Origin: an uncultured Planctomycetia bacterium
GTDB lineage: Bacteria; Omnitrophota; Gorgyraeia; Duberdicusellales; 4484-171
DNA length: 64,000 nucleotides
Direction of reading: 5' to 3'
Assembly (NCBI GenBank): GCA_964635565.1
Contig: CAZWON010000001.1
Coordinates: 71,020-135,019, forward strand
Position numbers and translations under genes: made by a program. Of this stretch, positions 2,458 through 31,958 are shown in pieces (within the stretch, counting starts at the first letter, position 1; every line of letters starts with the position of its first letter). A model generated the notes under the pieces. That model saw nothing but the letters and a program-made list of their open reading frames with translations. It ran no database searches and was not told the DNA's origin.

Positions 2458-3783
2458 ATGAGCAATAAACTTTGGGGCGCAAGATTCAAAAAGAAGACTG
2501 ATAAGGATTTTGAAGAATTTTCAAAATCTATAGAGTACGATTATAAGCTTGCTGAGTATGATATTCTTCATTCCTTGATACATGTTGAGGCTTTAGCCGA
2601 GGAGAAGATTATTACAAAAAAAGAGAAAGAACGATTTATTTTAGCATTAGAAAACATTTTATTATCGGCAAAGAGAGGTAAGTTTAAGTTTGATATTACC
2701 TCTGAGGATATTCATACGGACATTCAAAACAAAGTTGAAAAAAAAGTTGGCAAACTTGCTTATAAATTTCATACTTTTCGTTCAAGAAATGAACAGATTG
2801 CTTTTGATGAGAAGTTTTACTGTGTAGAAGAAGCAACAGCTATTTCTTTTCTTATAGAGAGTATTTTGGATTCGCTGAGTTATCTTTCCTATAAGTATAA
2901 AAATAAATTTTTTCCTGGGTATACCCATACTCAAAGAGCGCAGGTGGTAAATTTTTCTGACTATTTGGGTGCATATTCTGCTATGTTTAAAAGGGATAGA
3001 GAGAAATTAAAACATTTTATAAAGAACACTATTTTATATGTAAAAAGTGGTGCATTAGCAGGCAGTTTCATAAAAAGAAGCTCTTATATAAAAGCTATTA
3101 AAAAAGTTGTAGTTAAGTATAGAATAAAGAATGTAAACATACAGGTTGTATCTAACCCTTTAGATAATGTGGCAAGTCGTGATTTTATTGTGGAGTTGTT
3201 AAGTATTCTTTCTCTTATTCAAATGCATCTATCCAGAATGGCAGAGGATTTTATTCTTTATTCTACCCGTGAGTTTAGTTTCTTTAGTTTGCCGGAAGAG
3301 TTCTGCACAGGAAGTAGTCTTATGCCCCATAAGAAAAATCCTGATTTTTTAGAACTTGTCCGCGGGTATACAGGAAAAATATATGGAAATATGGTCTCCC
3401 TTCTTGTAACAATGAAAGGATTACCATTGACTTATAATCGCGATATGCAATTGGATAAAGAACCCATTTTTTCTTCTGTTAAGATCATAAAGGATGAGCT
3501 TAAAATTATGGCGAAACTAATAAGAGGTATAAAACTCAATCTTTCTACGACAGAGAAGGTTCTTGGCGATGATAGTTTTTATGCTACTGAGTTAGCAAGA
3601 TTTTTGGTTTATAAAGGAGTGCCTTTTAAAGAGGCACATAATATTGTCGGTAGAATGCTAAAGTATTGTGAAGATAAGATGGTGAGTTTAAAGGATATGT
3701 CGGAAAATGTGCTTAAGGGCTTTCATACCTCGCTTACTCCTGCTGTGATAAAAGAAATAATTACGGCGAAATCCTATAGGTAG
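2458..3783 (+). CDS. argH: argininosuccinate lyase
   Basis: N-terminus 'LWGARF'. Fumarate-lyase signature 'GSSLMPHKKNPD'. The ~440 aa length is typical. RBS-like 'aggaaggaagg' lies upstream. Confidence 0.85.
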   Translation: MSNKLWGARFKKKTDKDFEEFSKSIEYDYKLAEYDILHSLIHVEALAEEKIITKKEKERFILALENILLSAKRGKFKFDITSEDIHTDIQNKVEKKVGKLAYKFHTFRSRNEQIAFDEKFYCVEEATAISFLIESILDSLSYLSYKYKNKFFPGYTHTQRAQVVNFSDYLGAYSAMFKRDREKLKHFIKNTILYVKSGALAGSFIKRSSYIKAIKKVVVKYRIKNVNIQVVSNPLDNVASRDFIVELLSILSLIQMHLSRMAEDFILYSTREFSFFSLPEEFCTGSSLMPHKKNPDFLELVRGYTGKIYGNMVSLLVTMKGLPLTYNRDMQLDKEPIFSSVKIIKDELKIMAKLIRGIKLNLSTTEKVLGDDSFYATELARFLVYKGVPFKEAHNIVGRMLKYCEDKMVSLKDMSENVLKGFHTSLTPAVIKEIITAKSYR

Positions 3784-3809: not shown

Positions 3810-5072
3810 ATGCATAGTTTTCACTATAAAGGTAATACTCTTTATTGCGAAGAGGTAGAGGTTCAGGCAATAGTAGAGGAGTATGGAACTCCTCTTTATA
3901 TTTATAGTTACAACGCCATAATAGACCATTTCTTGAAACTGAAAAATGCTTTCCGTAAGGTTTCTCCTCTTATCTGTTATTCTGTGAAGGCGAATTCCAA
4001 CCTTTCTATTTTAAAAATAATGGTGGGAAAGGGTGCAGGTTTAGATATTGTTTCCGGAGGAGAACTCTTGCGGGCAAAGCTTGTAAACTGTTCACCAGAG
4101 AAAATAGTCTATGCTTCAGTAGGAAAAACTGAGAAGGAAATAAAAGAAGCAATTAAATTTGGCATTTTTATGTTTAATGTAGAGTCAGTCCCTGAGCTTG
4201 AAAAAATAAATGTTATTTCTCAACGGTTAAAGAAGATAGCTTGTGTGGCTTTAAGGATTAATCCACAGGTCCATCCTAAAACCCATAAGTATATTACAAC
4301 CGCTAAGAAAGAGACAAAATTCGGTATGGATATAAAGACAGCGCGGAAGATTTTTTTAAATTCTTCACATTACAAATATTTAAGAATCATTGGTATTCAT
4401 ATTCATATTGGTTCCCAGATTACTACTGCTACACCTTTTTTAAAAGCAATAAAAAAAGTAATACCCTTAATAAGGGAGTTAAGAAAAAGAAGATTCCCTA
4501 TTAATTATTTTAATATTGGCGGGGGGATGGGTATAGTATACTATAAAGAGAATTTTCAGAGCGCTTCTGCATTTGCCCAAAAAGTAATACCATTACTTAA
4601 AACTACAGGGTTAAAAGTTATTTTAGAGCCAGGAAGATTTATTGTGGGTAATGCAGGAATTTTAGTTACAAAAGTACTTTATATAAAAGATACGGTGTAT
4701 AAGAGATTTGTTGTAGTTGATTCTGCAATGAATGATTTAATTCGACCTGCTCTTTATGAAGCATATCATGAAATTATTCCTTTGAATAGAAGTCACAAAG
4801 TCACAAAGTCACAAAGTCACAAGTTAGTAGATGTGGTAGGGCCTGTATGTGAAAGTGGGGATTTTTTAGGTAAGGGGCGCAAACTTAATGTTAAGGAAGG
4901 CGATTATCTTGCAATTTTGGGTGCAGGGGCATACGGGTTTAGTATGAGTTCTAATTATAATAGTCGGCCACGAGCAGCCGAAGTTCTTATTAAAGGCAGA
5001 AAATGTTATCTTATAAGAAAAAGAGAGACCTATAAGGATTTAGTAGATAAGGAGATTATTGTAAAGATATAG
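3810..5072 (+). CDS. lysA: diaminopimelate decarboxylase
   Basis: Fold-III PLP decarboxylase. N-terminus 'VEEYGTPLYIY'. 'GGGMGI', 'EPGRFIVGNAG' and 'VVGPVCESGDFL' motifs are present. It contains an internal period-8 tandem repeat (see repeat feature). Confidence 0.9.
   Translation: MHSFHYKGNTLYCEEVEVQAIVEEYGTPLYIYSYNAIIDHFLKLKNAFRKVSPLICYSVKANSNLSILKIMVGKGAGLDIVSGGELLRAKLVNCSPEKIVYASVGKTEKEIKEAIKFGIFMFNVESVPELEKINVISQRLKKIACVALRINPQVHPKTHKYITTAKKETKFGMDIKTARKIFLNSSHYKYLRIIGIHIHIGSQITTATPFLKAIKKVIPLIRELRKRRFPINYFNIGGGMGIVYYKENFQSASAFAQKVIPLLKTTGLKVILEPGRFIVGNAGILVTKVLYIKDTVYKRFVVVDSAMNDLIRPALYEAYHEIIPLNRSHKVTKSQSHKLVDVVGPVCESGDFLGKGRKLNVKEGDYLAILGAGAYGFSMSSNYNSRPRAAEVLIKGRKCYLIRKRETYKDLVDKEIIVKI
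4790..4825. repeat. perfect tandem repeat (AAGTCACA)x4 plus partial fifth unit, inside the lysA coding sequence
   Basis: Read directly from sequence: gaAAGTCACAAAGTCACAAAGTCACAAAGTCACAagtt. The period is 8 nt, not a multiple of 3, and it encodes 'SHKVTKSQSHKL'. Confidence 0.9.
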
Positions 5073-5099
5073 AAGAAGTATTCTGTAGAGAAAAGTTAA

Positions 5100-5972
5100 A
5101 TGGGAAAAGAAAAGAGGGTGGAGTTTTTTAAATTGCAAGCGTCAGGTAACGATTTTATCTTAATAGATAATCTTAAAAAGAATATTTCTTCCTTTCAATT
5201 GAGGAAATTAGCAAAAGATTTTTGCCAGAGAAAATTTGGGGTTGGGGCAGACGGTCTTTTAGTAATTGAGCTTTCTAAGAAGTACGATTTTAGAATGCAT
5301 ATATTCAACCCTGATGGGTCAGAGGCAGAAATGTGTGGGAATGGTGCGCGTTGCGTTGGTTTATGGGCAGAAATAGCCCTGGGGAAGAATTATGTGAAAT
5401 TTGATACTAAAGCAGGAGCTATAGAGGTAGAAATAGAGAAGGGTTCTTTAAAAAGAGATAAGATTAGTATGGGAGAATATAAACGAGTGCGAATAAAGAT
5501 GAGTGAACCACGGGGATTACGTCTTGATTTTCCTGTAAGGGTTTCCAAGCGGTTAATTAAAGTAAATTGTATAAATACAGGGGTTCCTCATATAGTTGTT
5601 TTTGTAGAAGGGCTGGATAAAATTGATATAGAGAGAATCGGTAGAAAACTGCGATTTCATAAGGCGTTTATGCCTGCAGGGACGAATGTTGACTTTGTTG
5701 AAGTGGTAGATGATGAGTTCATAAAAATACGTACCTATGAAAGGGGTGTGGAGGCAGAAACTTTTGCCTGTGGAACGGGTGTTGTAGCGTCAGCAATTGT
5801 TACGGGTTGTAAAATCATAAAATCACAAAGTCACAGATATAAATTTGATGTCTTAACGAGAAGCGGTGATATATTACAAGTTTATTTCACAAAAGATGGT
5901 AGTAAAATAAGTGATGTGTGGCTTAAGGGGAAAGCGTATTTTGTGTATAAGGGACAGCTTAACGCAGATTAA
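5100..5972 (+). CDS. dapF: diaminopimelate epimerase
   Basis: 'ASGNDFILID' N-terminal motif. Catalytic 'CGNGARC' and a second Cys motif 'ACGTGVVAS' are present. ~290 aa. Confidence 0.9.
   Translation: MGKEKRVEFFKLQASGNDFILIDNLKKNISSFQLRKLAKDFCQRKFGVGADGLLVIELSKKYDFRMHIFNPDGSEAEMCGNGARCVGLWAEIALGKNYVKFDTKAGAIEVEIEKGSLKRDKISMGEYKRVRIKMSEPRGLRLDFPVRVSKRLIKVNCINTGVPHIVVFVEGLDKIDIERIGRKLRFHKAFMPAGTNVDFVEVVDDEFIKIRTYERGVEAETFACGTGVVASAIVTGCKIIKSQSHRYKFDVLTRSGDILQVYFTKDGSKISDVWLKGKAYFVYKGQLNAD
5812..5835. repeat. degenerate period-8 tandem repeat (AAATCATA / AAATCACA / AAGTCACA) inside dapF
   Basis: Same 8-mer family as the lysA repeat. It encodes 'IKSQSHRY', sharing the 'KSQSH' peptide with the lysA insert. 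Confidence 0.7.
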
Positions 5973-6096
5973 CAGTAAGGATATACAGATTATCGCAGAC
6001 AATAAAATAAAAAAAGTAAAATTATCAATTAACATTTTAAAATGTTCTTTTCAATCTTAATCGTTAACTTTTCATCGCTAATTTTGAATTTGTAAT

Positions 6097-6138
6097 AAAT
6101 CTGTGTTAATCTGTTATAAATCAGCGGTAATCTGTGTA
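6097..6138 (+). promoter_or_regulatory. three direct repeats of TAATCTGT(G/T)T immediately upstream of the dapA RBS; candidate operator/regulator binding array
   Basis: Copies begin at about 6097, 6108 and 6129, with spacings of 11 and 21 nt. They end 4 nt before the 'aaggagg' RBS (6142-6148). Confidence 0.3.
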
Positions 6139-6152
6139 TAAAGAAGGAGGTA

Positions 6153-7034
6153 GTGATGTTTTCAGGAAGTATTCCTGCTTTAGTTACTCCTTTTAAGAGA
6201 GACGGTAGTATCGATGAAGAACGCCTGCGTTTTCTTATTAACTGGCATATTAAAAACAGAAGTGATGCTATTTTAGTATGTGGAACCACAGGAGAAAGTG
6301 CTACTTTGTCTCACCAGGAGCATAAACATATAGTAAAAATAGCTACAGAAGAAGCAAGAAGACGCATTCCTATTATTGCGGGGGCAGGGTCGAATTCTAC
6401 CGAGGAAGCATTGGATTTGGCACATTTTGCCAAGAAGGTAAAAGCTGATGCCATCTTGGTGATTACTCCTTATTACAATAAGCCAACACAGGAAGGATTG
6501 TACCAGCATTATAAAAAAATATCACGAGAAGTTAAGATACCCCTTATTGTTTACAATGTTCCTTCCCGGACAGGGACTAACATTTTACCACAGACGGTAG
6601 CACGTCTCTATAAAGATTGTAAAACAGTTATTGGAATAAAGGAAGCCAGTGGTTCTTTAGACCAGATAACGAAGCTTATGACTCTTGTGGATAGGAGGTT
6701 TGTTCTTCTTTCAGGAAGTGATGAAATAACCTTACCTATTCTTTCTATAGGAGGTAAAGGTGTAATTTCTGTTGTAGCAAATATAATGCCTCGCCAGACT
6801 CATGATCTTGTTGCAAGTTTCTTAAAAGGAAATATTGAGAAAGCAAGAAAGTTACAACTTTATCTTTACCCCTTAATTAAAATACTTTTTATAGAGACTA
6901 ATCCTATCCCTGTTAAGACAGCTTTAGGTCTTATGGGACTTATTGAGCCAAACTTACGGCTTCCTCTCTATAGGATGAATAAGGAAAACTTTAAAAAACT
7001 TAAGGCAATTATTAAGAAGTACAATCTCAGTTAA
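6153..7034 (+). CDS. dapA: 4-hydroxy-tetrahydrodipicolinate synthase
   Basis: 'ALVTPF...DG.ID', 'GTTGES', the 'YNVPSRTG' motif and the Schiff-base lysine region 'IGIKEASG' are all present. Confidence 0.9.
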   Translation: MMFSGSIPALVTPFKRDGSIDEERLRFLINWHIKNRSDAILVCGTTGESATLSHQEHKHIVKIATEEARRRIPIIAGAGSNSTEEALDLAHFAKKVKADAILVITPYYNKPTQEGLYQHYKKISREVKIPLIVYNVPSRTGTNILPQTVARLYKDCKTVIGIKEASGSLDQITKLMTLVDRRFVLLSGSDEITLPILSIGGKGVISVVANIMPRQTHDLVASFLKGNIEKARKLQLYLYPLIKILFIETNPIPVKTALGLMGLIEPNLRLPLYRMNKENFKKLKAIIKKYNLS

Positions 7035-7067: not shown

Positions 7068-8459
7068 ATGGAAGATATTAAATTGTCAATAATAATCCCT
7101 GTATATAATGAGATAAATACTGTTTTAGAAATAATAAGATTAGTGAAAGAAGAGAGACATAAAAAAGAGATTATAGTTGTTGATGATTGCTCTACGGATG
7201 GGACACACGAGGTACTAAAACAGATTGAAGAAGAGAACATTAGAGTTTTATTCAATGATGTTAATAGAGGCAAAGGTTATGGGATAAGAAAGGCATTAAA
7301 GTATGTGGCAGGGGATATTGTAATTATTCAAGATGCAGACCTTGAATATTATCCTGATGAGTATGGGATTTTAATAGAAAAAATTATTCAAAATAAAGCG
7401 GACGTTGTTTATGGGAGCAGATTTATAGGGGGTGCACACCGTGTATTTAATTTCTATCATTACATAGGGAACTTGGTTATTAATACAATTGCTAATATTT
7501 TCTTGAATGCCAATTTTACAGATTTAATGACTTGCTATAAAGCATTTAGAAGCGATGTATTGAAGAGTTTAAAACTGGAAGCAAATGGATTTGGGATAGA
7601 AACAGAGATTACTGCAGAGGTTTTTAAAAGAAGATATAGAGTATATGAGGTGCCTATTTCTTATAACGGCAGAACCTATGAAGAGGGGAAGAAAATAAGA
7701 TGGACAGATTTCTTTACGTGTTTGTATTGGCTTCTAAGATCGATAATTAGAGGGGTTGATTTAGGAGAAGACACATTATTGAAGACGATAATTATGAAAA
7801 ACAATAACTGGTGGGTTTATAAAAAAATTGAACCTTTTTTAGGGAAGAAAATATTAGAATTAGGTTCTGGTATAGGAGCAATATCGAAATACCTGGTGAA
7901 AAAAAATAGAAAAGTAACTCTTACTGATATTAATAAAAAATATACCACATATTTAAAAAGAAGATTTGTTGGCAATCCTCACGTAGAAGTTAAGAATATA
8001 GATATTTTAAACATAGATACTGTGTTTTCTGAGGGAGAGTTTGATACTATTATAGGAATAAATATTTTAGAACATATAGAGCACGATATAGAATCTATTA
8101 AGAAATTAAAAAAGGTACTTATTAAAGAAGGAAATCTCATACTATTGGTTCCTGCTCATAAAAGTTTGTTCGGGAAATTGGATAGCAAATTGGGCCATTT
8201 TCGGAGATACTCAAGGGATGAGTTAAAAACCAAGCTTAAAAATGAAGGTTTTTATATAGAAAGAATAGAATTTATGAATTTTTTAGGAGCAGTAGGATGG
8301 TTTATAAATTTCAAACTTTTAAGAAGAGAAAGAATGTCAAAATTAGTAATTCAGATTTTTGATGGGACCATACCGGTTATTGCTTTTATAGAGAGATTTT
8401 TAAAATTTCCTTTTGGACTTTATCTGTTATGTATTGCAAAAAATAAATTAGATTTTTAG
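7068..8459 (+). CDS. fusion protein: N-terminal GT2 polyprenyl-phosphate sugar synthase-like glycosyltransferase (DPM1/ArnC/GtrB-like) + C-terminal class I SAM-dependent methyltransferase domain
   Basis: N-terminus 'LSIIIPVYNE...VVDDCSTDGT...DADLEY' is GT-A/GT2. C-terminus 'ILELGSGIGAIS...VTLTDIN...NILEHIEHD' is the SAM motif I plus post-I acidic residue and motif III. 463 aa total. Confidence 0.75.
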   Translation: MEDIKLSIIIPVYNEINTVLEIIRLVKEERHKKEIIVVDDCSTDGTHEVLKQIEEENIRVLFNDVNRGKGYGIRKALKYVAGDIVIIQDADLEYYPDEYGILIEKIIQNKADVVYGSRFIGGAHRVFNFYHYIGNLVINTIANIFLNANFTDLMTCYKAFRSDVLKSLKLEANGFGIETEITAEVFKRRYRVYEVPISYNGRTYEEGKKIRWTDFFTCLYWLLRSIIRGVDLGEDTLLKTIIMKNNNWWVYKKIEPFLGKKILELGSGIGAISKYLVKKNRKVTLTDINKKYTTYLKRRFVGNPHVEVKNIDILNIDTVFSEGEFDTIIGINILEHIEHDIESIKKLKKVLIKEGNLILLVPAHKSLFGKLDSKLGHFRRYSRDELKTKLKNEGFYIERIEFMNFLGAVGWFINFKLLRRERMSKLVIQIFDGTIPVIAFIERFLKFPFGLYLLCIAKNKLDF

Positions 8460-8699
8460 ATATACTCCTTTCATTTTAAATATTTTTCCCTCTACATAAA
8501 ATATTATAGGCTTTGTTCTTTACCTAGTGATTTCATTCTAAGGTAAAGATAATAAACAATCTAACACGGGAAGAATAAAGAATATACAATTTTCTTGATG
8601 ATAAGAAGCTGTTTGTTATTTTAAATCTATAATTTTATGTTACAATATTTAAAATAATATATTTTACTCATAATAGATGAATTAACTTAATAAAAAGTA

Positions 8700-9580
8700 A
8701 TGAATGAGAAAGAATGTGTATTGTGTGGCTCAACAGAAATAAAAATAATCTTTTCTTCTCCCCTAAATAATACAAAAAAGATAGAACAATTTGGTTTTTC
8801 ACCTACTGTCTCCGATTTTGGTGTTTTTTATAAGCTAGCACAGTGTCAGGAATGCGGAGTGGTATTTTCTTTACTAGATAATCAAGATTTAACTTTATCA
8901 TACTCAGCCTCTAATGATGATTTATATTTAAATCAAGCTTTAGAGAGGACAGTTACTTATAAGCGTATATTGCGAGATATTAAAAAATTTGTTTCTGATA
9001 ATGCTTGTTTTTTAGATGTTGGATGTTCTTATGGATTATTGCTAAAGTTAGCTAAAGAAGTTGGTTCTAAAGTTTATGGAGTTGAGCTAAGCGAAAATGC
9101 TTGCAGATATGCAAGAGAAAAATTAGGGTTAAATGTTGTATGCGCAGATGTAGCAGAGATTAAATTTTCTAATAATTATTTCGATGTAATTACAGCTATA
9201 GAAATAATTGAACATTTAAGTAATCCTAAAAATTTTATACTCCATATGTATAAAATATTAAAACCGGGGGGATATTATATTTAGTGACTCCTAACCTAAG
9301 AAGCCTTTCGGCAAAGATTTTTGGATACCAGTGGTGGTTTTACAGAAGAATGTATTTATATTATTTTTCTGACAGTGCGCTTCAGAATTTTTTAAATAGA
9401 AATGGATTTTTAGTAATATCTGCTAAACCCTATAAGAAAACTTTTAAGATTAATTACATACTGCGTCAACTTTCTAAATCTAAAATAAATAAAATATTTT
9501 ACAATATACTCAATAAAATAGTTAATTTCTTGAGGGTTAGGAACTTATATTTACAGGTAGTTTTGGCGATGTCGTTATGA
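8700..9580 (+). CDS. class I SAM-dependent methyltransferase with N-terminal CxxC..CxxC zinc-ribbon; reading frame interrupted by an apparent -1 frameshift in a G6 homopolymer (9265-9270)
   Basis: ORF 8700..9284 ends '...LKPGGYYI*'. ORF 9284..9580 continues 'VTPNLRSL...' in the -1 frame. Re-reading one G gives 'LKPGGILYLVTPN', the canonical methyltransferase 'LKPGG.L...TPN' post-motif II/III. 'LDVGCSYG' is SAM motif I. Confidence 0.6.
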
Positions 9581-9602
9581 TAGCAAAAAAGATATAGGCA
9601 TA

Positions 9603-10820
9603 TTGATGAATTGGAAACTAGTACGATGGATAGATATTTATATAGGAATACCTCTGGTATATTTAATATTTCTTATAAAGAAAATATTCAGATTATCTAA
9701 CATTTCTTCAGAAGAATATAATAATCTTTTGTTTATTAAATTTTGGGGTATAGGTAATATCATTATGATTTTACCTGCAGCGAGTGCATTAAAGAAGAAG
9801 TATAAAAATGCAAATATAGACTTATTAACTTTAACAAACAATAAGGATGCTTCTCGTTCTGCAGGGATTTTTAGGGATATTTATACTATAGATACAACCC
9901 ATATAGTTAAATTTCTTATTACCTCTATAAGGACATTTAAAATATTGATTAAGAAAGATTATGATGTAATAGTTGACTTTGAACAGTTCGCAAGGTTTTC
10001 AGCAATATGGTGTGCTCTTATAGGAAGAAAAAAAACTGTGGGGTTTAATACTAAAGGGCAACATCGCTTTATATTATATACAAATCCTACTGTCTATAGA
10101 GACGACATTCATATTACAAAATCTTTTTATAGTTTAGTAGAGTCTTTGGGAGTTCTTGCTATAGACGAGATAGAGCCTTTTCCTTTAAACTGCCATGATC
10201 ATTGTATTAGGACGGTAAGAAGCATATTATCTAAGGAAGGAGTTTTTCCTGAAGATATTATAATTATTCTTCATGTAGGAACAAGTAAGAATTTTGCACT
10301 TAGACGCTGGCCCTTTGAGCATTTTGCTGAATTATCTGACAGATTAATAAATAATTTTGACGTAAAGATAATTTTTACAGGATTGACAGAAGAAAAGGTT
10401 TTAATAGAAAGAGTTTTTGCAATGATAAAGAATAAAAAAGGAGCAATTAATCTAAGTGGAAAGTTTAATTTTGAAGAATTTATAGCCTTAATTAGACTAA
10501 GTGACTTAGTTGTCTCAGCTGATACCGCCCCTGTTCATATTGCTACTTCTTTGGGAGTCCCTGTAGTAGGACTTTATGGCCCAAACACCCCCTTTCTATA
10601 TGGACCATGGGGTAAGAAGAGTATATGGTTTTATAGACAATTAGAGTGTGCTCCTTGCATAACAAATTATAATGCTAAAATAAACAAATGTGGGCATCCC
10701 GAAGGTCAAGGGGCATGTATGAGAAAGATTAGCCCAGATGAGGTATTTTTGGGAATAGTTACTAATTACTTTGACGAAAAATCACCTTTTAGGTTGGAGA
10801 AGTTGAAAGTAAATGCGTAG
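9603..10820 (+). CDS. glycosyltransferase family 9 (LPS heptosyltransferase-like), with N-terminal TM segment and Cys-rich C-terminal tail
   Basis: The GT9 donor-binding region 'ADTAPVHIATSLGVPVVGLYGPNTP' matches the RfaF/RfaC-type 'DSGPMHLA..G.P.V.LFGPT'. The C-terminus 'CAPC...KCGHPEGQGAC' is cysteine-rich. Confidence 0.7.
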   Translation: MMNWKLVRWIDIYIGIPLVYLIFLIKKIFRLSNISSEEYNNLLFIKFWGIGNIIMILPAASALKKKYKNANIDLLTLTNNKDASRSAGIFRDIYTIDTTHIVKFLITSIRTFKILIKKDYDVIVDFEQFARFSAIWCALIGRKKTVGFNTKGQHRFILYTNPTVYRDDIHITKSFYSLVESLGVLAIDEIEPFPLNCHDHCIRTVRSILSKEGVFPEDIIIILHVGTSKNFALRRWPFEHFAELSDRLINNFDVKIIFTGLTEEKVLIERVFAMIKNKKGAINLSGKFNFEEFIALIRLSDLVVSADTAPVHIATSLGVPVVGLYGPNTPFLYGPWGKKSIWFYRQLECAPCITNYNAKINKCGHPEGQGACMRKISPDEVFLGIVTNYFDEKSPFRLEKLKVNA

Positions 10821-11877
10821 ATTGATAGGATTAGCAAAGAATATACTCGTTAGTAATTTTACCGATTTAAGGTATCCCTATAGATTTACTTATATTTTAA
10901 CCTACCGATGTAATCTTAGATGTAATATGTGTAATATTTGGCAAGAACATAAGGAAGAAGAGCTATCCGTCGCTCAGATAAAGAAGTTTTTTAAAAATTT
11001 TTGCAAATTTTCGTGGATTAATGTAAGTGGGGGAGAAATATTTTTAAGAGAAGATTTGTTAGATATTTTTGATATTATTCTCACAACTTGCAAAGATCTG
11101 TATCTTTTAGATTTTCCTACGAATGGTTTCCAGACCAAACTTATTCTTGAGGTAATAAACAGGTTGTTAGTTAATTATAAGATACCCAAGATATTAGTCA
11201 CTATCAGTTTAGATGGTCCGCAAAAGTTACATGATCAGATACGGGGAGTTGAGGGTTCTTGGGATAGAGCTGTGGAAACTTTCAGGCAATTACGTAAATT
11301 AAGAAGTGCAAGGTTTAATGTATTTTTCGGCACTACCTTACAGCCAGCGAATATAGGAAAATTTGATGAGACAGTTAAATCTGTAGAAGAAAAAATTGGT
11401 AATATCCGTTATAATGACTTCCATGTAAATTTAATTCAGTATTCCCCTCATTATTATAAAAATATAGATACATCAGATTCTAATGATTATGATAAATTAT
11501 GGCCTCAGTTAGAAAGAATTATTAGAAGACGTAAGATTTTTTTGTTTAGCCCTATTGGTTTTCTTGAATATGAATATCAGAAATTAGCCAGAATTTATTT
11601 ATCAGAAAAAAAGACGCCTATTACTTGTCAGGCTTTTTCCGCATCTTTTTTTATGGATCCAGAGGGTAATATTTTTCCTTGTAGTATATATAATAAGTCT
11701 ATAGGTAATATCGTTGACTTTGATTATGATATAAATAAGATGTGGGATACTGTTTCTAGATATAGAATAAGAGAAGAGATTCGCAAGCAAAAGTGCCCTC
11801 AATGTTGGACACCTTGTGAAGCATATCAAAGTATTTTGGCTAATTTATTTGTTGTCTTTAAAAGGGGTAGACTATGA
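10813..11877 (+). CDS. radical SAM enzyme with C-terminal SPASM/twitch-like Cys-rich domain
   Basis: Radical-SAM cluster 'YRCNLRCNMCNIW' (CxxxCxxC). Glycine-rich 'SGGEIFL' SAM-binding motif. C-terminal Cys cluster 'CQAF..FPCS...KCPQCWTPCEAY'. Confidence 0.8.
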   Translation: MRRLIGLAKNILVSNFTDLRYPYRFTYILTYRCNLRCNMCNIWQEHKEEELSVAQIKKFFKNFCKFSWINVSGGEIFLREDLLDIFDIILTTCKDLYLLDFPTNGFQTKLILEVINRLLVNYKIPKILVTISLDGPQKLHDQIRGVEGSWDRAVETFRQLRKLRSARFNVFFGTTLQPANIGKFDETVKSVEEKIGNIRYNDFHVNLIQYSPHYYKNIDTSDSNDYDKLWPQLERIIRRRKIFLFSPIGFLEYEYQKLARIYLSEKKTPITCQAFSASFFMDPEGNIFPCSIYNKSIGNIVDFDYDINKMWDTVSRYRIREEIRKQKCPQCWTPCEAYQSILANLFVVFKRGRL

Positions 11878-12974
11878 TTAGAAAAGTCTATATTGATTTT
11901 ATAAAAAATAAAGTTGTTGAAGGAAAGTGGGATTGGTTTTTTAAAAGATTCTGGCAATACTTTATTATTCATATTTCTTTTATTGCGGGTCGGCCTTTCT
12001 GTGGTCCGATTTTAGGTACTTTTGTTGTTAATTATCGATGTAACTATAAGTGTAAAATGTGTGATTTGCCATTGAGAGATAAGTTTATCCAAAAGCAGGG
12101 GTTAAAAGAATTCTCAACCTTACAGTTAAAAAAAATTCTTAAGGAATTTGCAAGCTTGGGGACAGCGGGTATAGGTTTTACAGGAGGAGAGCCACTTTTA
12201 CGAGAAGATATATTTGAGCTTATGAAGTATTCAAAGGAATTAGGTATGATTACTCACTTAAATACTAATGGGTTTTTCCTTGATAGCGAAAATATCAAAA
12301 GGCTTCTATATGCTAATGTTGACTCTATAAATATTTCTTTAGATGGAGCCTATGCTTCTACTCACGATGCAATTAGAGGTTATCGGGGGGCATTTGATAG
12401 GGTAGTTTATGCTGTAGAGTGTATTGATTTCATGCGAAAGAAAATGGGTGTTCCTATACGCGTGAAAGTAGTGACTGTAATAGGTAAAGATAATATCGAT
12501 GAGATACCCGATTTGTTTAAACTAGCTCATAGTTTAAAAGTAGACTGTATTGAGTTTATCCCACAACAGCCTTTTTCTGTTTTGACAGATGATACTCCTG
12601 TGAATTTTGATAATATTTTTTTAGAAAAGATAGATACAGTGGTTGATTATATTTTGAAGGAGGGGAAGAAGATAGTAAGGGTAGAAAATTCACCTCGTCA
12701 TTTAAAATTATTTAAGAATTCTTTTGGGGGTGAAAAGTCACCCCTTATTTGTTTTGCGGGATATAATTCTTATGCTGTGGATTGCTATGGTCAAATTTTT
12801 CCCTGTATGCCATGGGTTAATTGGGGGAAATCCGTGGGAAATGTAAAAGAGAGTTCCCTTAAGAAATTTTGGTATTCAGCAATGTATAATAAGATACGGC
12901 GTGATATTTCAAAGTGCAGAGATTGTTATCTGAATTGTCAGGCAGAGTTAAATATTTTGTTTAATATAATTTAA
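11874..12974 (+). CDS. radical SAM enzyme with C-terminal SPASM-like domain (paralog of the upstream gene), with a hydrophobic N-terminal extension
   Basis: 'YRCNYKCKMCDL' (CxxxCxxC). 'TGGEPLL'. C-terminal 'CFAGYNSYAVDCYGQIFPC...CRDCYLNCQ'. Start overlaps upstream stop (ATGA). Confidence 0.8.
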   Translation: MIRKVYIDFIKNKVVEGKWDWFFKRFWQYFIIHISFIAGRPFCGPILGTFVVNYRCNYKCKMCDLPLRDKFIQKQGLKEFSTLQLKKILKEFASLGTAGIGFTGGEPLLREDIFELMKYSKELGMITHLNTNGFFLDSENIKRLLYANVDSINISLDGAYASTHDAIRGYRGAFDRVVYAVECIDFMRKKMGVPIRVKVVTVIGKDNIDEIPDLFKLAHSLKVDCIEFIPQQPFSVLTDDTPVNFDNIFLEKIDTVVDYILKEGKKIVRVENSPRHLKLFKNSFGGEKSPLICFAGYNSYAVDCYGQIFPCMPWVNWGKSVGNVKESSLKKFWYSAMYNKIRRDISKCRDCYLNCQAELNILFNII

Positions 12975-13012
12975 AAAAGAGTTTAATTATTTTATAGAGG
13001 TTAAATTAATTA

Positions 13013-14821
13013 ATGAAGAATAAAAAAAACCTTTTTCTTCGTTCTACAATACCATTACCATTCTGTATTATAAGTGCAGTTTTTTTATATTTTCTTGCTT
13101 TAAGCTGGTTAAAATGGGGCAACCCTGTTGTCGATACTTTTAGAGACCAGTGGGTAGCTTATAACTTAACTGTAGGAAAAACTTTATATAAAGATATTTT
13201 TTACCATTATGGTTTTTTAGCGCCTTATTCTATTTCTTTTTTGTATAAAATATTTGGTGTAAATATAATATACTCAGTTTTTTTAGGGATATTTATTACT
13301 GGTTTTTCCTGTTATTTTCTTTATAAACTTTCTCGCCTTTTTCTTAATAGGGCATTTTCTACAGTTCTTTTATTAAACTTTCTTTTAGTTTTTGCTTTTG
13401 GATGTTATTGTTCTAACTGTATTTTTAATTTTATATTACCTTATAGTTTTTCTTCTACTTTTCTTATAATGTTTATTCTTTCTTCACTATACTTCTATAT
13501 TAAATTTATAAGAAAAAAGCACTATAGATATTTGGTCTTTTGGGCGCTTTCTATATATTTTGTTTTTTTATCTCGTGTAGATTTTGGTGTTTTTATTTGG
13601 TTAGTATTTGTTGCGATTTTTATAGGATGTATCCCCAAAGAAAGAAAATCGAAGGTTATTATATATATGTTTATTCCTTTTTTGATGAGTTTATTGTCTT
13701 ACTGGCTATTTTTATATCTTAATAATGCCTTTTTTTATTTCCGTGAATCTATAATTAATATGATTTCTTTCTGTTTAGAAGGAGGGAATAAGTTTGATTA
13801 TATTATCTCAGGGTTTGATAATCTTTCTTATAATTTAAAAAATATTATTATCTCTTTTTTTTCTCAGTTTATAATAGCTTTTCTATTTTATTTAATGAGT
13901 GTTGTAATACATATTTTCCTTAAAAGAACAACAATAAAATTATTTCCTCTTTTATTATATACTATATTAGGAATAGTTTCGTTTAGAGTTACTTTTCTTT
14001 TTGTCGGAGTTGTTAACTTTTTCCTTCAATACAGATTAATACCTCTAGTGCTTCTTGGGGGAATAATGATATATATTTTTAGGTTATTTTTTAGTAAAGA
14101 AAAAGAGAAGATTTCTTCATATTTAGTTTTATTTGTTATTTCACTTTTGCTTATATTAAGGATAATATTTCTTGCTTCTCCTAATGGGTATGGTTTTTTT
14201 CTTTTAGTTCCCAGTTTAGTCTGTTATTATATTTTCTTTAAAGATATATGTTTTCCTTTGTTTACCTTTATCATAAGAGTTGCAATTAATAAAAATGTAA
14301 AACGCTATTATCTGTTTTCTGTTTCTATTTTCTTTGTTTTACTGTCTTTGTTATTTGCCAGATTTAATTATGAGAGTTATAGTATGAAAAAATGCTCTAT
14401 TTTTACTCCGAGGGGAAATTTGTATTTTTTCTGCACGCCCTGCACGCAGAGATTCTGGGAAACGGTTTATTTTTTAAGAAAGCATACTGCTAAGAATGCA
14501 AAAGTTGTTGTTTTCCCCGAAGGAATAGGAATAAATTTTTTTTCTCAAAGAGATAACCCTTTACGGTATCATACTTTTCTTCCTCCTATAGTCAGAATTG
14601 TTACGGAAAATAAAATAATAAAGAACTTAAATAAATACAAAATAGATTATATAATAATACTTTCCAGAGCTACATATGAATATGGATATCCTTTTTTTGG
14701 TATTCACTATGGGGAAAATATTTATCATTGGATATTAAATAATTATGAACTTATTAAAGTCTTTGGTCCTTATCCTTTTACTTCTTTAGAATTTGGGGTG
14801 GCGATATTTAAGAGAAAATAA
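13013..14821 (+). CDS. polytopic (~13 TM) integral membrane protein with C-terminal soluble domain; GT-C-fold glycosyltransferase-like (ArnT/PMT/oligosaccharyltransferase-type) candidate
   Basis: Translation is very hydrophobic with many predicted helices. The first extracytoplasmic loop after TM1 carries an acidic 'VVDTFRDQW' motif, the usual position of the GT-C catalytic D/E. A ~130 aa non-hydrophobic C-terminal domain follows. Fold assignment is inference. Confidence 0.45.
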   Translation: MKNKKNLFLRSTIPLPFCIISAVFLYFLALSWLKWGNPVVDTFRDQWVAYNLTVGKTLYKDIFYHYGFLAPYSISFLYKIFGVNIIYSVFLGIFITGFSCYFLYKLSRLFLNRAFSTVLLLNFLLVFAFGCYCSNCIFNFILPYSFSSTFLIMFILSSLYFYIKFIRKKHYRYLVFWALSIYFVFLSRVDFGVFIWLVFVAIFIGCIPKERKSKVIIYMFIPFLMSLLSYWLFLYLNNAFFYFRESIINMISFCLEGGNKFDYIISGFDNLSYNLKNIIISFFSQFIIAFLFYLMSVVIHIFLKRTTIKLFPLLLYTILGIVSFRVTFLFVGVVNFFLQYRLIPLVLLGGIMIYIFRLFFSKEKEKISSYLVLFVISLLLILRIIFLASPNGYGFFLLVPSLVCYYIFFKDICFPLFTFIIRVAINKNVKRYYLFSVSIFFVLLSLLFARFNYESYSMKKCSIFTPRGNLYFFCTPCTQRFWETVYFLRKHTAKNAKVVVFPEGIGINFFSQRDNPLRYHTFLPPIVRIVTENKIIKNLNKYKIDYIIILSRATYEYGYPFFGIHYGENIYHWILNNYELIKVFGPYPFTSLEFGVAIFKRK

Positions 14822-14854
14822 AATTTGTTATAATATTAAGAGAAAGGGGTAAAG

Positions 14855-15580
14855 ATGTTAAGAGCAGGGATAAGTGGTATTTGTGGGAGAATGGGAAGGA
14901 GAATTCTTAATTTGAGTAAAAAAGATAAAGATATTGAAGTTGTTATAGGGTTAGAAAAAACTGGCCATAAGGATGTAGGAAATATAGTTGAAGGGGTAAA
15001 AGTCACAGATAAATTAATAGAATTAGAAAGGTGCGATTGCCTCATTGAATTTTCTACGCCCACTGCTACTTTAGAACATCTTAGATATTTAGTTACATTA
15101 AAAAAAACAGCAGTAGTAGGGACAACAGGTTTTAGTGACGATGAGGCTGATGAGGTAAAAAGAATAGCAGAAAAGATTCCTATAGTATTTTCTCCTAATA
15201 TGAGCATTGGTGTTAACTTAGTTTTTCGTCTGGTGAAAGAAGCAGCAAAAGTATTAAAAGAGTATGAGGTTTATATTGAAGAGGCTCATCATATTCATAA
15301 AAAAGATGCCCCTAGCGGAACCGCCAAAAAAATAGCAAATATTATAAATAGTGAGGGTTTCAGCATAAAGACAGAAGATATTGTTTCTATTCGTGAAGAT
15401 GAGATTGTAGGTGACCATAGCGTTATCTTTAAGAGCACATTAGATGAGATTGAACTTTCCCATTCCGCAAAGACACGTGATATATTTGCTCAAGGAGCAA
15501 TTGTAGCAGCAAAATGGATAAAAGATAAAAAGAAAGGCCTTTACTCTATGGAGGATGTACTTTTTGGAAGGGATTCATAA
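14855..15580 (+). CDS. dapB: 4-hydroxy-tetrahydrodipicolinate reductase
   Basis: N-terminal Rossmann 'GISGICGRMGRR'. Signature 'EAHHIHKKDAPSGTA'. ~240 aa. Confidence 0.85.
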   Translation: MLRAGISGICGRMGRRILNLSKKDKDIEVVIGLEKTGHKDVGNIVEGVKVTDKLIELERCDCLIEFSTPTATLEHLRYLVTLKKTAVVGTTGFSDDEADEVKRIAEKIPIVFSPNMSIGVNLVFRLVKEAAKVLKEYEVYIEEAHHIHKKDAPSGTAKKIANIINSEGFSIKTEDIVSIREDEIVGDHSVIFKSTLDEIELSHSAKTRDIFAQGAIVAAKWIKDKKKGLYSMEDVLFGRDS

Positions 15581-15606: not shown

Positions 15607-16764
15607 ATGAAAAAGAAAAAATTACTTTTATCACAACGATTACAGAGATTACCTCCTTATCTTTTTGCTCAAATTGAACGTAAGAAACAAAAGTTAAGAA
15701 AAAGAAGGGTTGTGCTAAAAGATTTAAGTATAGGTGATCCGGATATTTTAGCTCCTTGGGGGGTAATCAACACTCTTTATAGGTCCGCTAAACAAAAAGA
15801 TAATCAGAAGTATGCTTTAGACCAGGGCAAAGAAAATTTAAGAAATTCTATAAAAAAATGGATGAAAAAAAGATTCGGAATTAATTTAGATAAGGAAAGA
15901 GAAATTTTACCTTTAATTGGTTCCAAAGAAGGATTAGTACATTTACCATTAGCATTTGTTAATCCCGGCGAGTATGTTCTTGTTCCTTCTCCTGGTTATC
16001 CTGGTTATAGAGGAGCTGTGGTTTTAGCTTTAGGGAAAATTTATGAGATGCCCCTAAGAGAAGATAATAATTTTTTACCCTCTTTAGAGAAGATACCGTT
16101 GGGGATAAGAAATAAAAGTAAACTTATGTATTTAAATTATCCTAATAATCCTACAACTGCTTTAGCGCCTCGTGAGTTCTTAAAAGAAGTGGTTAAGTTC
16201 TGCTCTCATTATGGTATTATTCTTGCTTACGATAATGCCTATTCAGAAATTTACTTTGAGAGAAAACCTTTAAGTATCTTTCAGATAAAAGGAGCTGAAG
16301 AAATAGCTATTGAGTTTCACTCTTTTTCCAAGACCTTTTGTATGACAGGCTTTCGTATTGGTTGGGCTTCTGGTAACAAAGGTTTGATTAAGTGTCTCTT
16401 GAAAATAAAGACGAATATTGATTCAGGAATTTTTGGTGCCATTCAGGATGCAGGAGCTTATGCCTTAGATAAAGAGAAAGGGTATGTTAGAAACTTAAGA
16501 AAGATTATTAGAGAAAGAAGAGATTTTTTTGTTAAAGGGTTAAATCAGAAAGGATTTAAGAAGATATACGCTTATAGCACTTTCTATGTATGGGTGAAGA
16601 TACCTCTATCTTTTAAATCTTCTATGGATTTTTCCCATTATCTTTTAAATAAAAAAATTGTTGCCACGCCAGGAATAGGTTTTGGTAAATATGGTGAAGG
16701 ATTTGTAAGATTTGCTCTTACAGTAGATATTACCGAACTAAAAGAAGCAATTAGAAGGATATAG
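15607..16764 (+). CDS. class I/II PLP aminotransferase, probable LL-diaminopimelate aminotransferase (DapL-type) given dap context
   Basis: N-terminus 'LQRLPPYLFAQIERKK'. PLP-lysine region 'FHSFSKTFCMTGFRIGWA'. It sits directly after dapB in the lysine block. Assignment to DapL rather than a general Asp/Ala aminotransferase rests on context. Confidence 0.55.
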   Translation: MKKKKLLLSQRLQRLPPYLFAQIERKKQKLRKRRVVLKDLSIGDPDILAPWGVINTLYRSAKQKDNQKYALDQGKENLRNSIKKWMKKRFGINLDKEREILPLIGSKEGLVHLPLAFVNPGEYVLVPSPGYPGYRGAVVLALGKIYEMPLREDNNFLPSLEKIPLGIRNKSKLMYLNYPNNPTTALAPREFLKEVVKFCSHYGIILAYDNAYSEIYFERKPLSIFQIKGAEEIAIEFHSFSKTFCMTGFRIGWASGNKGLIKCLLKIKTNIDSGIFGAIQDAGAYALDKEKGYVRNLRKIIRERRDFFVKGLNQKGFKKIYAYSTFYVWVKIPLSFKSSMDFSHYLLNKKIVATPGIGFGKYGEGFVRFALTVDITELKEAIRRI

Positions 16765-26126: not shown

Positions 26127-26315
26127 ATGAAAGAATCGAGAACAGTACGATTAATGAGTATTAGTGAATTAGCAGAATATTTGGGTCTTAGAAGACAGAC
26201 CATTTATAATTGGTTGCATCAGAAGAAAATTTCAGGGATAAAAATCGGTAAGGTATGGCGTTTTGACCGTAGAGAAATAGAGAAATGGCTTAAAAACTGT
26301 AGTAAAAATAAATGA
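26127..26315 (+). CDS. small helix-turn-helix DNA-binding protein (excisionase/HTH_17-like)
   Basis: 'MSISELAEYLGLRRQTIYNWL...GKVWRFDRREIEKWL' is typical of the MerR-superfamily excisionase-type HTH. Its stop overlaps the pilM start (ATGA). Confidence 0.6.
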   Translation: MKESRTVRLMSISELAEYLGLRRQTIYNWLHQKKISGIKIGKVWRFDRREIEKWLKNCSKNK

Positions 26316-27796: not shown

Positions 27797-27803
27797 AAAG
27801 CAG

Positions 27804-28280
27804 ATGGATTCACTAATAAAGCATAAAAATATAATTGCAGTTTTTCTTATCAGTATAATTTTTGTTTTTATAGCTCGGCAGATTCATTCAAGTTTTATAC
27901 AGAAATATAGAAAGCTGGATAAAGAAAAAAAAGAATTTGAAGAAAAAAAAGTTTTAGCTAATACGTTATCAAATATTGAGGAAGAGTTTAATAATCTTAA
28001 AAAGAGAGTATTTAAAGGAGACATCTTTGATTTTAAGAAGGTAATAGAGAATAACGCTGCTAAGAGAAAAATTATTGTTGATTCTCTTATTCCTAAAGAA
28101 TTAGAGAATAGGAAGGAATATAAGAAGGTAAGATTTATCCTTGAGCTTAAAACGGATTATGATTCTTTGAGAAAGTTTGTTAGCAACTTAGAATCAACCG
28201 GGTGTGTAGATATAAGATATTTAGAGAGAAGAGGGTTCCATAAATATCTTTTAGAGGTGGTTGTAATATTGAAAGAATAG
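27804..28280 (+). CDS. PilO-like inner-membrane pilus assembly protein
   Basis: N-terminal TM 'IIAVFLISIIFVFIA', a coiled-coil region and a C-terminal alpha/beta domain. Position between pilMN and pilP/Q. Confidence 0.45.
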   Translation: MDSLIKHKNIIAVFLISIIFVFIARQIHSSFIQKYRKLDKEKKEFEEKKVLANTLSNIEEEFNNLKKRVFKGDIFDFKKVIENNAAKRKIIVDSLIPKELENRKEYKKVRFILELKTDYDSLRKFVSNLESTGCVDIRYLERRGFHKYLLEVVVILKE

Positions 28281-28282
28281 AT

Positions 28283-28699
28283 ATGCGAGTATATATAATA
28301 GCTTTAGGAACAGGGCTGCTTTTATATCTGCCCTATGTAGGATTAACAGAGGAGGAAAGTTTTAAAAGAGACCTTTTTACTCCTCCTTTCAGGAAGATTG
28401 AAAAGAAGACAATGAAGGTTAAGGAACGTCCTTTTAAAAAACCTACTCCTATAAAGAGGGAATTTATTAAGAAGCAAAAAGTTAAACCCCAATATTTAGA
28501 CTTGGAGGTAGAAGGTATAATTTTAAGCGATAATCTCAAACATGCTATAATTGATGGACATCTTTATAAAGAGGGAGATATTGTAGAAAATAAAGACGCT
28601 AAAATAGTAAAGATAGATAAAGGGAGAATTTTTCTTATGTTTAGTGGTGTTTTGTATGAAGTGCCTATTGGAAAAAATATAGAGGAAAAATATAGATGA
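28283..28699 (+). CDS. PilP-like pilus assembly protein
   Basis: Signal/TM segment, proline/lysine-rich linker, C-terminal beta domain 'GIILSDNLKHAIIDGHLYKEGDIV'. Position directly before the secretin. Confidence 0.4.
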   Translation: MRVYIIALGTGLLLYLPYVGLTEEESFKRDLFTPPFRKIEKKTMKVKERPFKKPTPIKREFIKKQKVKPQYLDLEVEGIILSDNLKHAIIDGHLYKEGDIVENKDAKIVKIDKGRIFLMFSGVLYEVPIGKNIEEKYR

Positions 28700-30210: not shown

Positions 30211-30214
30211 TAGT

Positions 30215-31921: not shown

Positions 31922-31958
31922 CTCCTGTTTAACTAATATTTTAATTAAATTTAAAAGA

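Follow-up and report, generated by a model that had tools for sequence, protein, structure and literature searches.

Much of what makes bacterial surfaces diverse, including O-antigen side chains, the modified lipid A of polymyxin resistance and mycobacterial arabinan, is the work of glycosyltransferases of the GT-C class that use lipid-linked donors. A block of six genes that may belong with these systems lies between dapA and dapB on a 64,000-nt stretch of DNA from an uncultured member of the Omnitrophota (assembly GCA_964635565.1, contig CAZWON010000001.1, positions 71,020 to 135,019), a phylum known almost solely from metagenomes. This whole stretch is called the window and sets the coordinates used below; the loci and genomes compared with it carry L numbers. 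We read the block, with a probability of about 0.6, as a variable surface-glycan island that encodes a Gtr/Arn-like periplasmic glycosylation system with radical S-adenosylmethionine (SAM) tailoring, anchored by a GT-C gene at a conserved site in the arg-lys/dap-folK-panC-nadX array of Omnitrophota. Its product would be an uncharacterised envelope structure, possibly made with new radical sugar chemistry, that is approachable by experiment, and the gene set is found in anaerobes of several phyla, including Geobacter.

Comparison with described glycosylation systems

The established concept of three-component glycosylation comprises a synthase of the lipid-linked donor, a flippase and a GT-C enzyme, with tailoring of the donor by auxiliary enzymes (PMC11127046). 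The Gtr systems of O-antigen glucosylation and the GT136 pentofuranose systems (Kelly et al. 2024, PMC11127046) share with the proposed pathway the loading of polyprenyl phosphate in the cytoplasm, transfer by a GT-C enzyme in the periplasm, possible auxiliary tailoring of the lipid-linked sugar, and modular loci that vary among strains. The island differs from both in having no flippase gene, in a GT2 enzyme that is fused to a methyltransferase and lacks transmembrane (TM) helices, and in a GT-C enzyme of a PMT_2-like subfamily rather than GT136 or Gtr. It also adds a GT9 and two radical-SAM/SPASM enzymes, which are absent from the component list of the GT136 systems in PMC11127046.

An initial annotation, made from the sequence of the window, had matched the block to no named pathway and had offered as candidate roles an arn-like modification of lipid A, a modification of the lipopolysaccharide (LPS) core, or protein glycosylation. 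The first statement is borne out: the ArnC, WaaC, WaaF, WaaQ and AglJ equivalogs all score far under their cut-offs, and profile searches of the kind it had suggested, here with Pfam and NCBIfam, return only superfamily names, with no arn or waa assignment. None of the three roles is confirmed, and the arn-like one survives in its general logic, a GT2 plus a GT-C enzyme, but fails as membership in an arn operon. The arn pathway for aminoarabinose on lipid A (pmrHFIJKLM) uses ArnA, ArnB, ArnD and ArnE/F, which the island lacks, and no ArnA, ArnB or ArnD domain occurs in any of its proteins; its GT2 reaches only 58 of the 529 bits that the ArnC model PRK10714 demands as cut-off, and its GT-C protein is ~8% identical to ArnT, with no match at the sequence level. 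The GT9 falls in the family of WaaC, WaaF and WaaQ and conserves the half that binds the nucleotide sugar, but it stays under all three equivalog cut-offs, so that a waa heptosyltransferase assignment was rejected, and it differs further in an extra N-terminal hydrophobic helix and in the constant coupling of this type of GT9 to two radical-SAM genes (seven loci). To our knowledge, such a radical-SAM pairing is not a feature of waa clusters.

Two more distant systems combine some of the same elements. In the mycobacterial decaprenyl-phospho-arabinose pathway, DprE1/E2 epimerise the lipid-linked sugar, and GT-C arabinosyltransferases then use the product. As an analogy only, this pathway resembles the proposed one in that the sugar is tailored after loading and then used by a GT-C enzyme, whereas its tailoring enzymes are flavin/NADH oxidoreductases rather than radical-SAM proteins and its donor comes from phosphoribosyl pyrophosphate rather than from a GT2. 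Archaeal Agl N-glycosylation (AglJ, the AglP methyltransferase, AglS/AglB) likewise joins a dolichol-phosphate-type GT2, a sugar methyltransferase and a GT-C enzyme. The host here is bacterial, no WWDXG-like motif is seen in the GT-C protein, and the AglJ score (137 bits against a cut-off of 325) is too far under the cut-off for an Agl assignment, which was rejected.

Enzymes encoded by the island

Six co-directional genes fill the interval between dapA and dapB (7068-14821, ~7.7 kb), all on the + strand of the map of open reading frames (ORFs), and thus split the lysine operon as the initial annotation had described; the same map holds no additional + strand ORF of at least 40 aa within these limits. 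The identities that this annotation gave to the genes (a GT2-methyltransferase fusion, a split methyltransferase, a GT9, two radical-SAM/SPASM enzymes and a GT-C-like protein) agree with the Pfam matches, the ORF map and predicted structure, and are collected with the flanking features in Table 1.

Table 1. The island, its flanking lysine genes and its non-coding features, in window coordinates
Feature	Positions	Strand	Evidence
argH	2458-3783	+	NCBIfam equivalog above cut-off
lysA	3810-5072	+	NCBIfam equivalog above cut-off
dapF	5100-5972	+	NCBIfam equivalog above cut-off
dapA, upstream flank of island	6153-7034	+	TIGR00674, 377 bits vs cut-off 206
Fusion of GT2 (residues ~1-235) and class-I SAM methyltransferase (~250-400)	7068-8459	+	PF00535 1.7e-35, PF08241 1.7e-10
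Conserved non-coding block in 240-bp spacer (8460-8699)	8610-8699	+	~90% identical to L002; rest of spacer 38-67%
Stand-alone class-I methyltransferase pseudogene	8700-9580 (ORFs 8700-9284, 9284-9580)	+	PF08241 2.5e-21 on 5' part
Divergent GT9 (heptosyltransferase-family) glycosyltransferase	9603-10820	+	PF01075 1.4e-29, 103.5 bits vs cut-off 22
Radical SAM/SPASM enzyme 1	10813-11877	+	PF04055, PF13186; CxxxCxxC at residues 33-40
Radical SAM/SPASM enzyme 2	11874-12974	+	PF04055 5.5e-23, PF13186 1.2e-10; CxxxCxxC from residue 56
GT-C-fold glycosyltransferase (ArnT/PMT-like), ~13 TM helices, ~140-aa C-terminal periplasmic domain	13013-14821	+	Predicted structure
Extended -10-like motif TGTTATAAT	14826-14834	+	Between GT-C stop and dapB start
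dapB, downstream flank of island	14855-15580	+	TIGR00036, 212 bits vs cut-off 122
DapL-like aminotransferase	15607-16764	+	TIGR03540, 495 bits (cut-off 593); PRK09276, 479 bits (cut-off 507)

The GT2 domain of the first gene resembles polyprenyl-phosphate glycosyltransferases. Its NCBIfam neighbours are AglJ (the top match), dolichyl-phosphate hexose transferase, PpgS and ArnC, with every equivalog score far under its cut-off; the nearest solved structures are the dolichol-phosphate mannose synthase (DPMS) of Pyrococcus (5mlz, 4.5e-19), ArnC (2e-12) and GtrB (5ekp, 2e-6); and a DAD motif is present. By family, the domain is a predicted polyprenyl-phosphate sugar synthase.

The second methyltransferase had been reported as frameshifted, and a 1-nt frame change is indeed found near 9281, where 'GGYYI*' resumes as 'LVTPN' and a joined reading gives 'KPGGYYILVTPN'. 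The same frameshift occurs at 100% identity in L001 (Logan assembly of run SRR6823441), which is 100% identical to the window along 15.3 kb and is possibly the window's own sample. The sister genome L002, the closest relative, has lost ~640 bp of the gene, and only the first ~30 and last ~20 codons are recognisable there. Frameshifted in one genome and largely deleted in the other, the stand-alone methyltransferase is a real, decaying pseudogene; a programmed frameshift was rejected on account of the deletion in L002 and since there is no slippery heptamer at 9275-9285.

The GT9, which probably starts at the ATG at 9606, has its hydrophobic helix at residues 6-32, and its C-terminal donor-binding half aligns with 3tov and with WaaF (1psw); the equivalog scores are 99 bits for TIGR02195 WaaF (cut-off 135), 95 for TIGR02201 WaaQ (170) and 65 for TIGR02193 WaaC (185). 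The gene overlaps that of radical-SAM enzyme 1 by 8 nt (ATGCGTAG), and the latter overlaps radical-SAM enzyme 2 in an ATGA at 11874, so that the three genes are translationally coupled. ATGA junctions had been proposed at both 10813 and 11874, and that description holds for the second site and not for the first.

In both radical-SAM proteins the CxxxCxxC and SPASM cysteines are intact, the invariant ones of enzyme 1 being C33, C37, C40, C272, C290, C328, C331 and C335. The family of enzyme 1 numbers more than 1,000 sequences, from Omnitrophota, Nitrospirota, Geobacter and other Desulfobacterota, and among solved structures enzyme 2 comes closest to BlsE, a sugar-nucleoside decarboxylase (5e-17, core domain only). 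No NCBIfam model is above its cut-off for either enzyme, and assignments of island proteins to heme (AhbD/NirJ), pyrroloquinoline quinone or mycofactocin pathways were rejected at scores 3-10x under the cut-offs. The two enzymes had been called paralogous, which they are, but they are only 29% identical, and for each of them a separate orthologue, 47-55% identical, exists in other phyla; judged from this divergence, the duplication is ancient rather than recent.

Many SPASM enzymes are peptide maturases. The maturases of ribosomally synthesized and post-translationally modified peptides (RiPPs) share the CxxxCxxC motif and SPASM domain (PF04055, PF13186) with both island proteins, and AlbA, SkfB, WgkB and PapB are among the weak matches. 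The GT9 and the radical-SAM/SPASM pair could then mature a ribosomal peptide or protein, in a RiPP-like pathway or in protein O-glycosylation, while the GT-C enzyme glycosylated a periplasmic protein such as pilin. PMT-family GT-C enzymes do O-glycosylate proteins, the window contains a type IV pilus cluster, and the Geobacter and Nitrospirae gene sets described below are flanked by GT-C-like proteins with TPR domains. A precursor is missing, however: no small ORF of suitable size occurs in the spacer, between the genes or beside the island, and none is conserved across loci. With the CxxxCxxC motif starting at residue 33 or 56, there is no space for an N-terminal recognition domain, and no PqqD-like gene or other RiPP recognition element, as domain or partner, is apparent from protein size and ORF content, recognition-domain profiles not having been searched. 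The absence of all three favours a small-molecule or sugar substrate for the radical-SAM enzymes. The relation of enzyme 2 to a sugar-nucleoside decarboxylase, and neighbourhoods made up mainly of sugar-nucleotide and glycosyltransferase genes, also count against peptide or protein maturation, which we regard as unlikely.

The last gene encodes the protein that the initial annotation had called 13-TM and GT-C-like, and a GT-C fold with ~13 TM helices is supported by its predicted structure. It has no Pfam (E <= 0.01) or NCBIfam match. An AlphaFold model built from a 38-sequence alignment reaches a pLDDT of 92, Foldseek matches it to STT3, PglB, AglB, DPY19 and ArnT, and the same alignment contains an invariant Asp, D41, in the first periplasmic loop; the model thus predicts a GT-C fold with an acidic residue at that position. 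The link to ArnT and PMT comes from fold comparison, the sequence profile being silent, while PF13231 is precomputed on 14/42 of the homologues and some are named GT39 or ArnT family by NCBI. On reading the family consensus, no WWDXG-like motif was found in the C-terminal domain, and hence no sign of an oligosaccharyltransferase.

A gene module shared across phyla

The GT9, radical-SAM 1 and radical-SAM 2 genes are found in this order, with tight or overlapping junctions, in 7/7 loci whose radical-SAM 1 is 47-100% identical to that of the window. Besides the window and its Omnitrophota sister L002, these are L035 (Geobacter sp. AOG1, the genome record name), L036 (a Nitrospirae metagenome-assembled genome) and the metagenome contigs L117, L118 and L119. 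The Geobacter and Nitrospirae orthologues score 380-463 bits overall against the window proteins in phmmer (GT9 380-403, radical-SAM 2 421-463). A polytopic membrane protein of 536-650 aa comes next, immediately after these genes in 6/7 loci and separated from them by one gene in L117. The version in the window is PMT_2-like, those of L117 and L118 have no Pfam match (that of L117 is weakly PMT-similar), and those of the Geobacter, the Nitrospirae genome and L119 join a multi-TM domain at the N terminus to TPR repeats at the C terminus. Recurrent extras of the module are B12-binding radical-SAM enzymes, class-I methyltransferases, a ~240-aa GT2, DegT aminotransferases and GT4 enzymes.

Searching metagenomes with the radical-SAM 1 alignment returned 80 loci, mostly of a wider subfamily (27-47% identity) without the GT9 and radical-SAM 2; they inform on the association with GT2 and GT-C genes, but not on the three-gene set. 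Short GT2 genes are concentrated within three positions of these radical-SAM 1 relatives (16/163, versus 2/160 farther away; odds ratio 8.6, p = 0.001), and so are polytopic proteins with at least 8 TM helices (25/163 versus 10/160; odds ratio 2.7, p = 0.011). Pfam classes the representative neighbours as GT-C enzymes of PMT_2 type, GT2 enzymes and carbamoyltransferases. The clades of the GT-C protein differ in their partners, which include a GHMP kinase and a nucleotidyltransferase (heptose-like) in one, a radical-SAM-like protein and a CDP-alcohol phosphatidyltransferase in another, and GT9-like and radical-SAM-like proteins in a third; such variation is expected if the donor sugar changes while the logic of transfer stays constant.

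It is tempting to go further and to propose that the GT9, radical-SAM 1 and 2 and GT-C genes form one pathway in Omnitrophota, Geobacter/Desulfobacterota and Nitrospirota, in which a lipid- or nucleotide-linked sugar would be tailored by radical-SAM chemistry under anoxic conditions and then installed in the envelope by the GT-C enzyme. We offer this as a tentative idea that is rather less probable than its negation. If true, the set would stand as the anaerobic equivalent of DprE1/E2 or the GT136 auxiliary epimerases, a new class of the three-component type with new radical sugar chemistry. A full-text search found no literature that pairs GT9 or GT-C enzymes with radical-SAM/SPASM enzymes, and the set has probably not been described in the literature or in curated family models.

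A different role, in which the radical-SAM and GT-C enzymes act on a membrane lipid, for example by changing the head group or chain of a glycolipid or phospholipid, is suggested by five related Omnitrophota loci where a radical-SAM 1-like gene and a GT-C gene flank a CDP-alcohol phosphatidyltransferase. Those loci carry a more distant radical-SAM subfamily, at 250-290 bits versus 385-409 for true orthologues, and another GT-C clade. The tetraether synthase Tes is also among the weak radical-SAM matches, but the similarity is limited to the radical-SAM core; and an MprF-like TM protein is encoded in L004, whereas the island of the window contains no lipid-synthesis gene. We consider action on a lipid decidedly unlikely.

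Several variants were noted around the homologues of the island genes. A tight trio, in which a CDP-alcohol phosphatidyltransferase (PF01066) is grouped with a radical-SAM 1-like gene and a GT-C homologue, occurs in L016, L017, L022, L023 and L029 (Omnitrophota or Elusimicrobiota, at ~8-12 kb in each), and may be a variant of the same system linked to a phospho-alcohol or phospholipid. In L008, L009, L015, L018, L019, L021 and L024, the GT-C clade is accompanied by the GHMP kinase and nucleotidyltransferase, a GDP-heptose-like activation pair, and also by epimerases, a B12-binding radical-SAM enzyme, a DegT aminotransferase and E1-type thiamine pyrophosphate subunits, which suggests a modified heptose or an amino sugar as donor. 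A NodU/CmcH-type carbamoyltransferase (~565 aa) repeatedly adjoins radical-SAM 1-family genes (8/40 loci), as in the metagenome loci L040, L041, L057, L061, L067 and L071 and in the Nitrospirae locus L036 (13905-17152), where an SxtJ-like protein and a GDSL lipase accompany it; its recurrence hints at carbamoylated sugars.

An old and variable site in the lysine operon

The nearest homologues of the window's DapB are from Omnitrophota, all those named by their source being labelled Omnitrophota or Omnitrophica. Operon order was checked in L120, L121 and the complete genome L122 (CP070684.1), whose DapB is 61-67% identical to that of the window. In 3/3 of these relatives lysA, dapF, dapA, dapB, dapL, folK and panC are contiguous and the island is absent, which answers the earlier question of whether dapA directly precedes dapB elsewhere and identifies the island as extra DNA. 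Other genomes have a GT-C orthologue in the same operon with differing partners. In L002 it lies between dapA and dapB (81% identical) in a window-like layout that is conserved at ~81% nucleotide identity with 5/6 genes intact. L004 has it at the same site (45%) with a GT2, the MprF-like TM protein, a sulfotransferase and a GT1; L007 has it between dapB and dapL (46%) with a methyltransferase, a GT9, radical-SAM 2 and another methyltransferase; and in L024 it is immediately upstream of dapB (35%), with sugar-nucleotide genes upstream. In a neighbour-joining tree the GT-C proteins of the window, L002, L004 and L007 form one clade, to which L024 is adjacent. Carriers and non-carriers of the island interleave in a neighbour-joining tree of DapB+DapL+FolK (740 columns, indicative only).

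A k-mer comparison had been proposed for the block, and in composition it is the window's most deviant 7.75-kb stretch (rank 1-2 among 113 sliding windows), with the most deviant tetranucleotide usage and the lowest GC (0.294 versus 0.330). The GC content of third codon positions (GC3) nevertheless overlaps, at 0.17-0.28 in the island and 0.20-0.30 in the flanks, and because of this overlap the deviation is mostly one of amino-acid composition, chiefly that of the Phe/Ile/Leu-rich GT-C protein. A decaying passenger, acquired recently by horizontal transfer and without a stable role, would account for the deviant composition, for a pseudogene that is largely deleted in the sister genome and for the patchy presence among relatives. 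It fits poorly with the matching GC3, with the shared layout and intact genes of L002, with the translationally coupled junctions and with dap-linked GT-C genes that form one clade down to 45% identity, and it is highly improbable. Recent transfer as such was rejected, the tetranucleotide deviation being real and GC3 and synteny indicating old residence. The accessory nature claimed in the initial annotation therefore stands in part: the block is an insertion with respect to L120, L121 and L122, but it is no fresh, one-off splice, since at least four other genomes have GT-C orthologues in the same operon and GC3 is like that of the flanks. Indeed, the differing partners of these orthologues, their clade, the overlap in GC3 and the patchy distribution identify the block as an old, conserved site with variable glycan content, anchored by the GT-C gene, whose patchy presence arose through repeated loss or replacement. 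The locus would thus be a hypervariable surface-glycan site within an otherwise rigidly conserved biosynthetic array of Omnitrophota, as expected if surface variation is selected, for instance by phage or by contact with a host.

The location itself could be taken to mean that the island serves the lysine/diaminopimelate (DAP) operon, modifying peptidoglycan or another envelope component that contains meso-DAP and being co-transcribed with dap for that reason. A GT-C gene is found inside a dap operon in at least five genomes (35-81% GT-C identity), and the genes are co-directional with short gaps and without a terminator-like site at either the dapA or the dapB boundary. Yet the relatives described above keep an intact operon without the island, homologues of the GT-C gene are for the most part found away from dap operons, beside sugar-nucleotide genes, and no peptidoglycan-specific enzyme family is represented. 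The expression of dapB may be decoupled from the island as well. The extended -10-like motif ahead of dapB (Table 1) is present as TGTTATAAT at the matching position in L002 and as TGGTATAAT in the distant L004, and is a candidate promoter that may keep dapB-dapL expressed independently of the island. A second such motif, TGTTACAAT at 8638-8646, lies within the conserved part of the spacer and may be an internal promoter. These two TGnTAYAAT motifs fall at the only two sizeable intergenic sites of the block, and they carry weight by their position and their conservation across genomes, the count in the window being that of chance (8 versus 8.1 expected). Promoter and terminator scans gave counts not above the shuffled expectation, and there are no Rfam matches in or near the island, lysine riboswitches included. 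A function tied to DAP is very unlikely, and the place of the island in this operon seems to reflect gene order rather than function.

Proposed pathway and acceptor

For the surface-glycan island we infer the following course of events from protein family and fold, gene order, coupling and the association of radical-SAM genes with GT2 and GT-C genes. At the cytoplasmic face, the GT2 domain would load polyprenyl phosphate with the sugar of a nucleotide sugar, in the manner of DPMS, GtrB and ArnC, and the fused methyltransferase would O-methylate the loaded sugar or its product. The GT9 and radical-SAM 1/2 would build or tailor a sugar, either on this intermediate in its lipid- or nucleotide-linked form or else on the glycan that serves as acceptor, with epimerisation, deoxygenation, decarboxylation or C-methylation as candidate radical chemistry. 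A flippase encoded elsewhere would then carry the lipid-linked donor into the periplasm, where the GT-C enzyme would hand the sugar to an acceptor. The second methyltransferase, a pseudogene, would be dispensable.

Several results weigh against this proposal. No flippase gene of the GtrA, ArnE/F or MATE type occurs in the ORF map of 7068-14821, and no hydrophobic or TM segment is predicted in the GT2-methyltransferase fusion, although GtrB, ArnC and archaeal DPMS have them. Beyond the superfamily Pfam domains, none of the island proteins scores above the cut-off of a curated family model. The profile of the GT-C family matches no chain in the PDB at E <= 1, and thus no solved GT-C enzyme; its candidate catalytic residue, D41, is assigned by position. 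Finally, the Geobacter locus has no GT2 within 10 kb of its GT9/radical-SAM set, and the tie of this set to a GT2 donor pathway is therefore not obligatory. In favour of the proposal, the site in L004 that corresponds to the island codes for a GT2, a membrane protein of the PF03706 family (MprF-flippase-like) and the GT-C protein.

The host is a diderm with lipid A genes in the window, which also encodes Tol proteins and a type IV pilus. Our leading guess for the acceptor is the LPS core or lipid A, because the GT9 is of an LPS-core-type family and the window has lpxB, a GnnA-like dehydrogenase and msbA; type IV pilin or another protein is the alternative. After lpxB (35438-36523, - strand), and in the same orientation, comes the gene of the GnnA-like protein (36530-37426), a Gfo/Idh/MocA oxidoreductase with UDP-GlcNAc 3-dehydrogenase as its top match, and msbA (37525-39318) is oriented divergently to the two. 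This arrangement suggests that the lipid A contains GlcN3N, like that of Aquifex or Leptospira. The pilus cluster (26312-33191) comprises a PilM-like protein (494 aa), two small ORFs, the PilQ secretin, the PilB ATPase and PilC, and PilB has an N-terminal MshE-type motif for binding cyclic di-GMP (NF053729, residues 6-58).

The surrounding gene array

The flanks of the island had been assigned to the DapL route of lysine synthesis, and this is upheld by dapA, dapB, dapF and lysA, which are above their equivalog cut-offs, with the DapL-like gene below. Downstream of the latter, folK, panC, nadX and uvrA are named by NCBIfam equivalogs above cut-off. The window starts within an RND efflux permease gene (15-2294; the match begins at about model position 282 of 1009, the 5' part being outside the window). 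The co-directional array that follows (2458-24848) runs through argH, lysA, dapF, dapA, dapB, dapL, folK, panC, nadX and uvrA to a TPR protein (~800 aa, YbgF/BamD-like repeats) and TolQ/ExbB, an unusual combination of amino-acid, cofactor, DNA-repair and envelope genes. Among its upstream lysine genes, the largest intergenic gap is the 180 bp between dapF and dapA (5973-6152), which is overlapped by a GTG ORF on the - strand (6029-6289). GC skew reaches 0.41-0.43 over the 3' end of lysA and dapF (4500-6000), about twice the 0.15-0.25 typical of the window. The array is kept in the Omnitrophota genomes L120, L121, L122, L002 and L004, with DapB+DapL+FolK ~63-71% identical to the window. In L122 (12371-13279) it ends after a shortened panC (176 aa versus ~280), and rpoA and rplQ replace nadX and uvrA, a rearrangement breakpoint within the otherwise conserved array.

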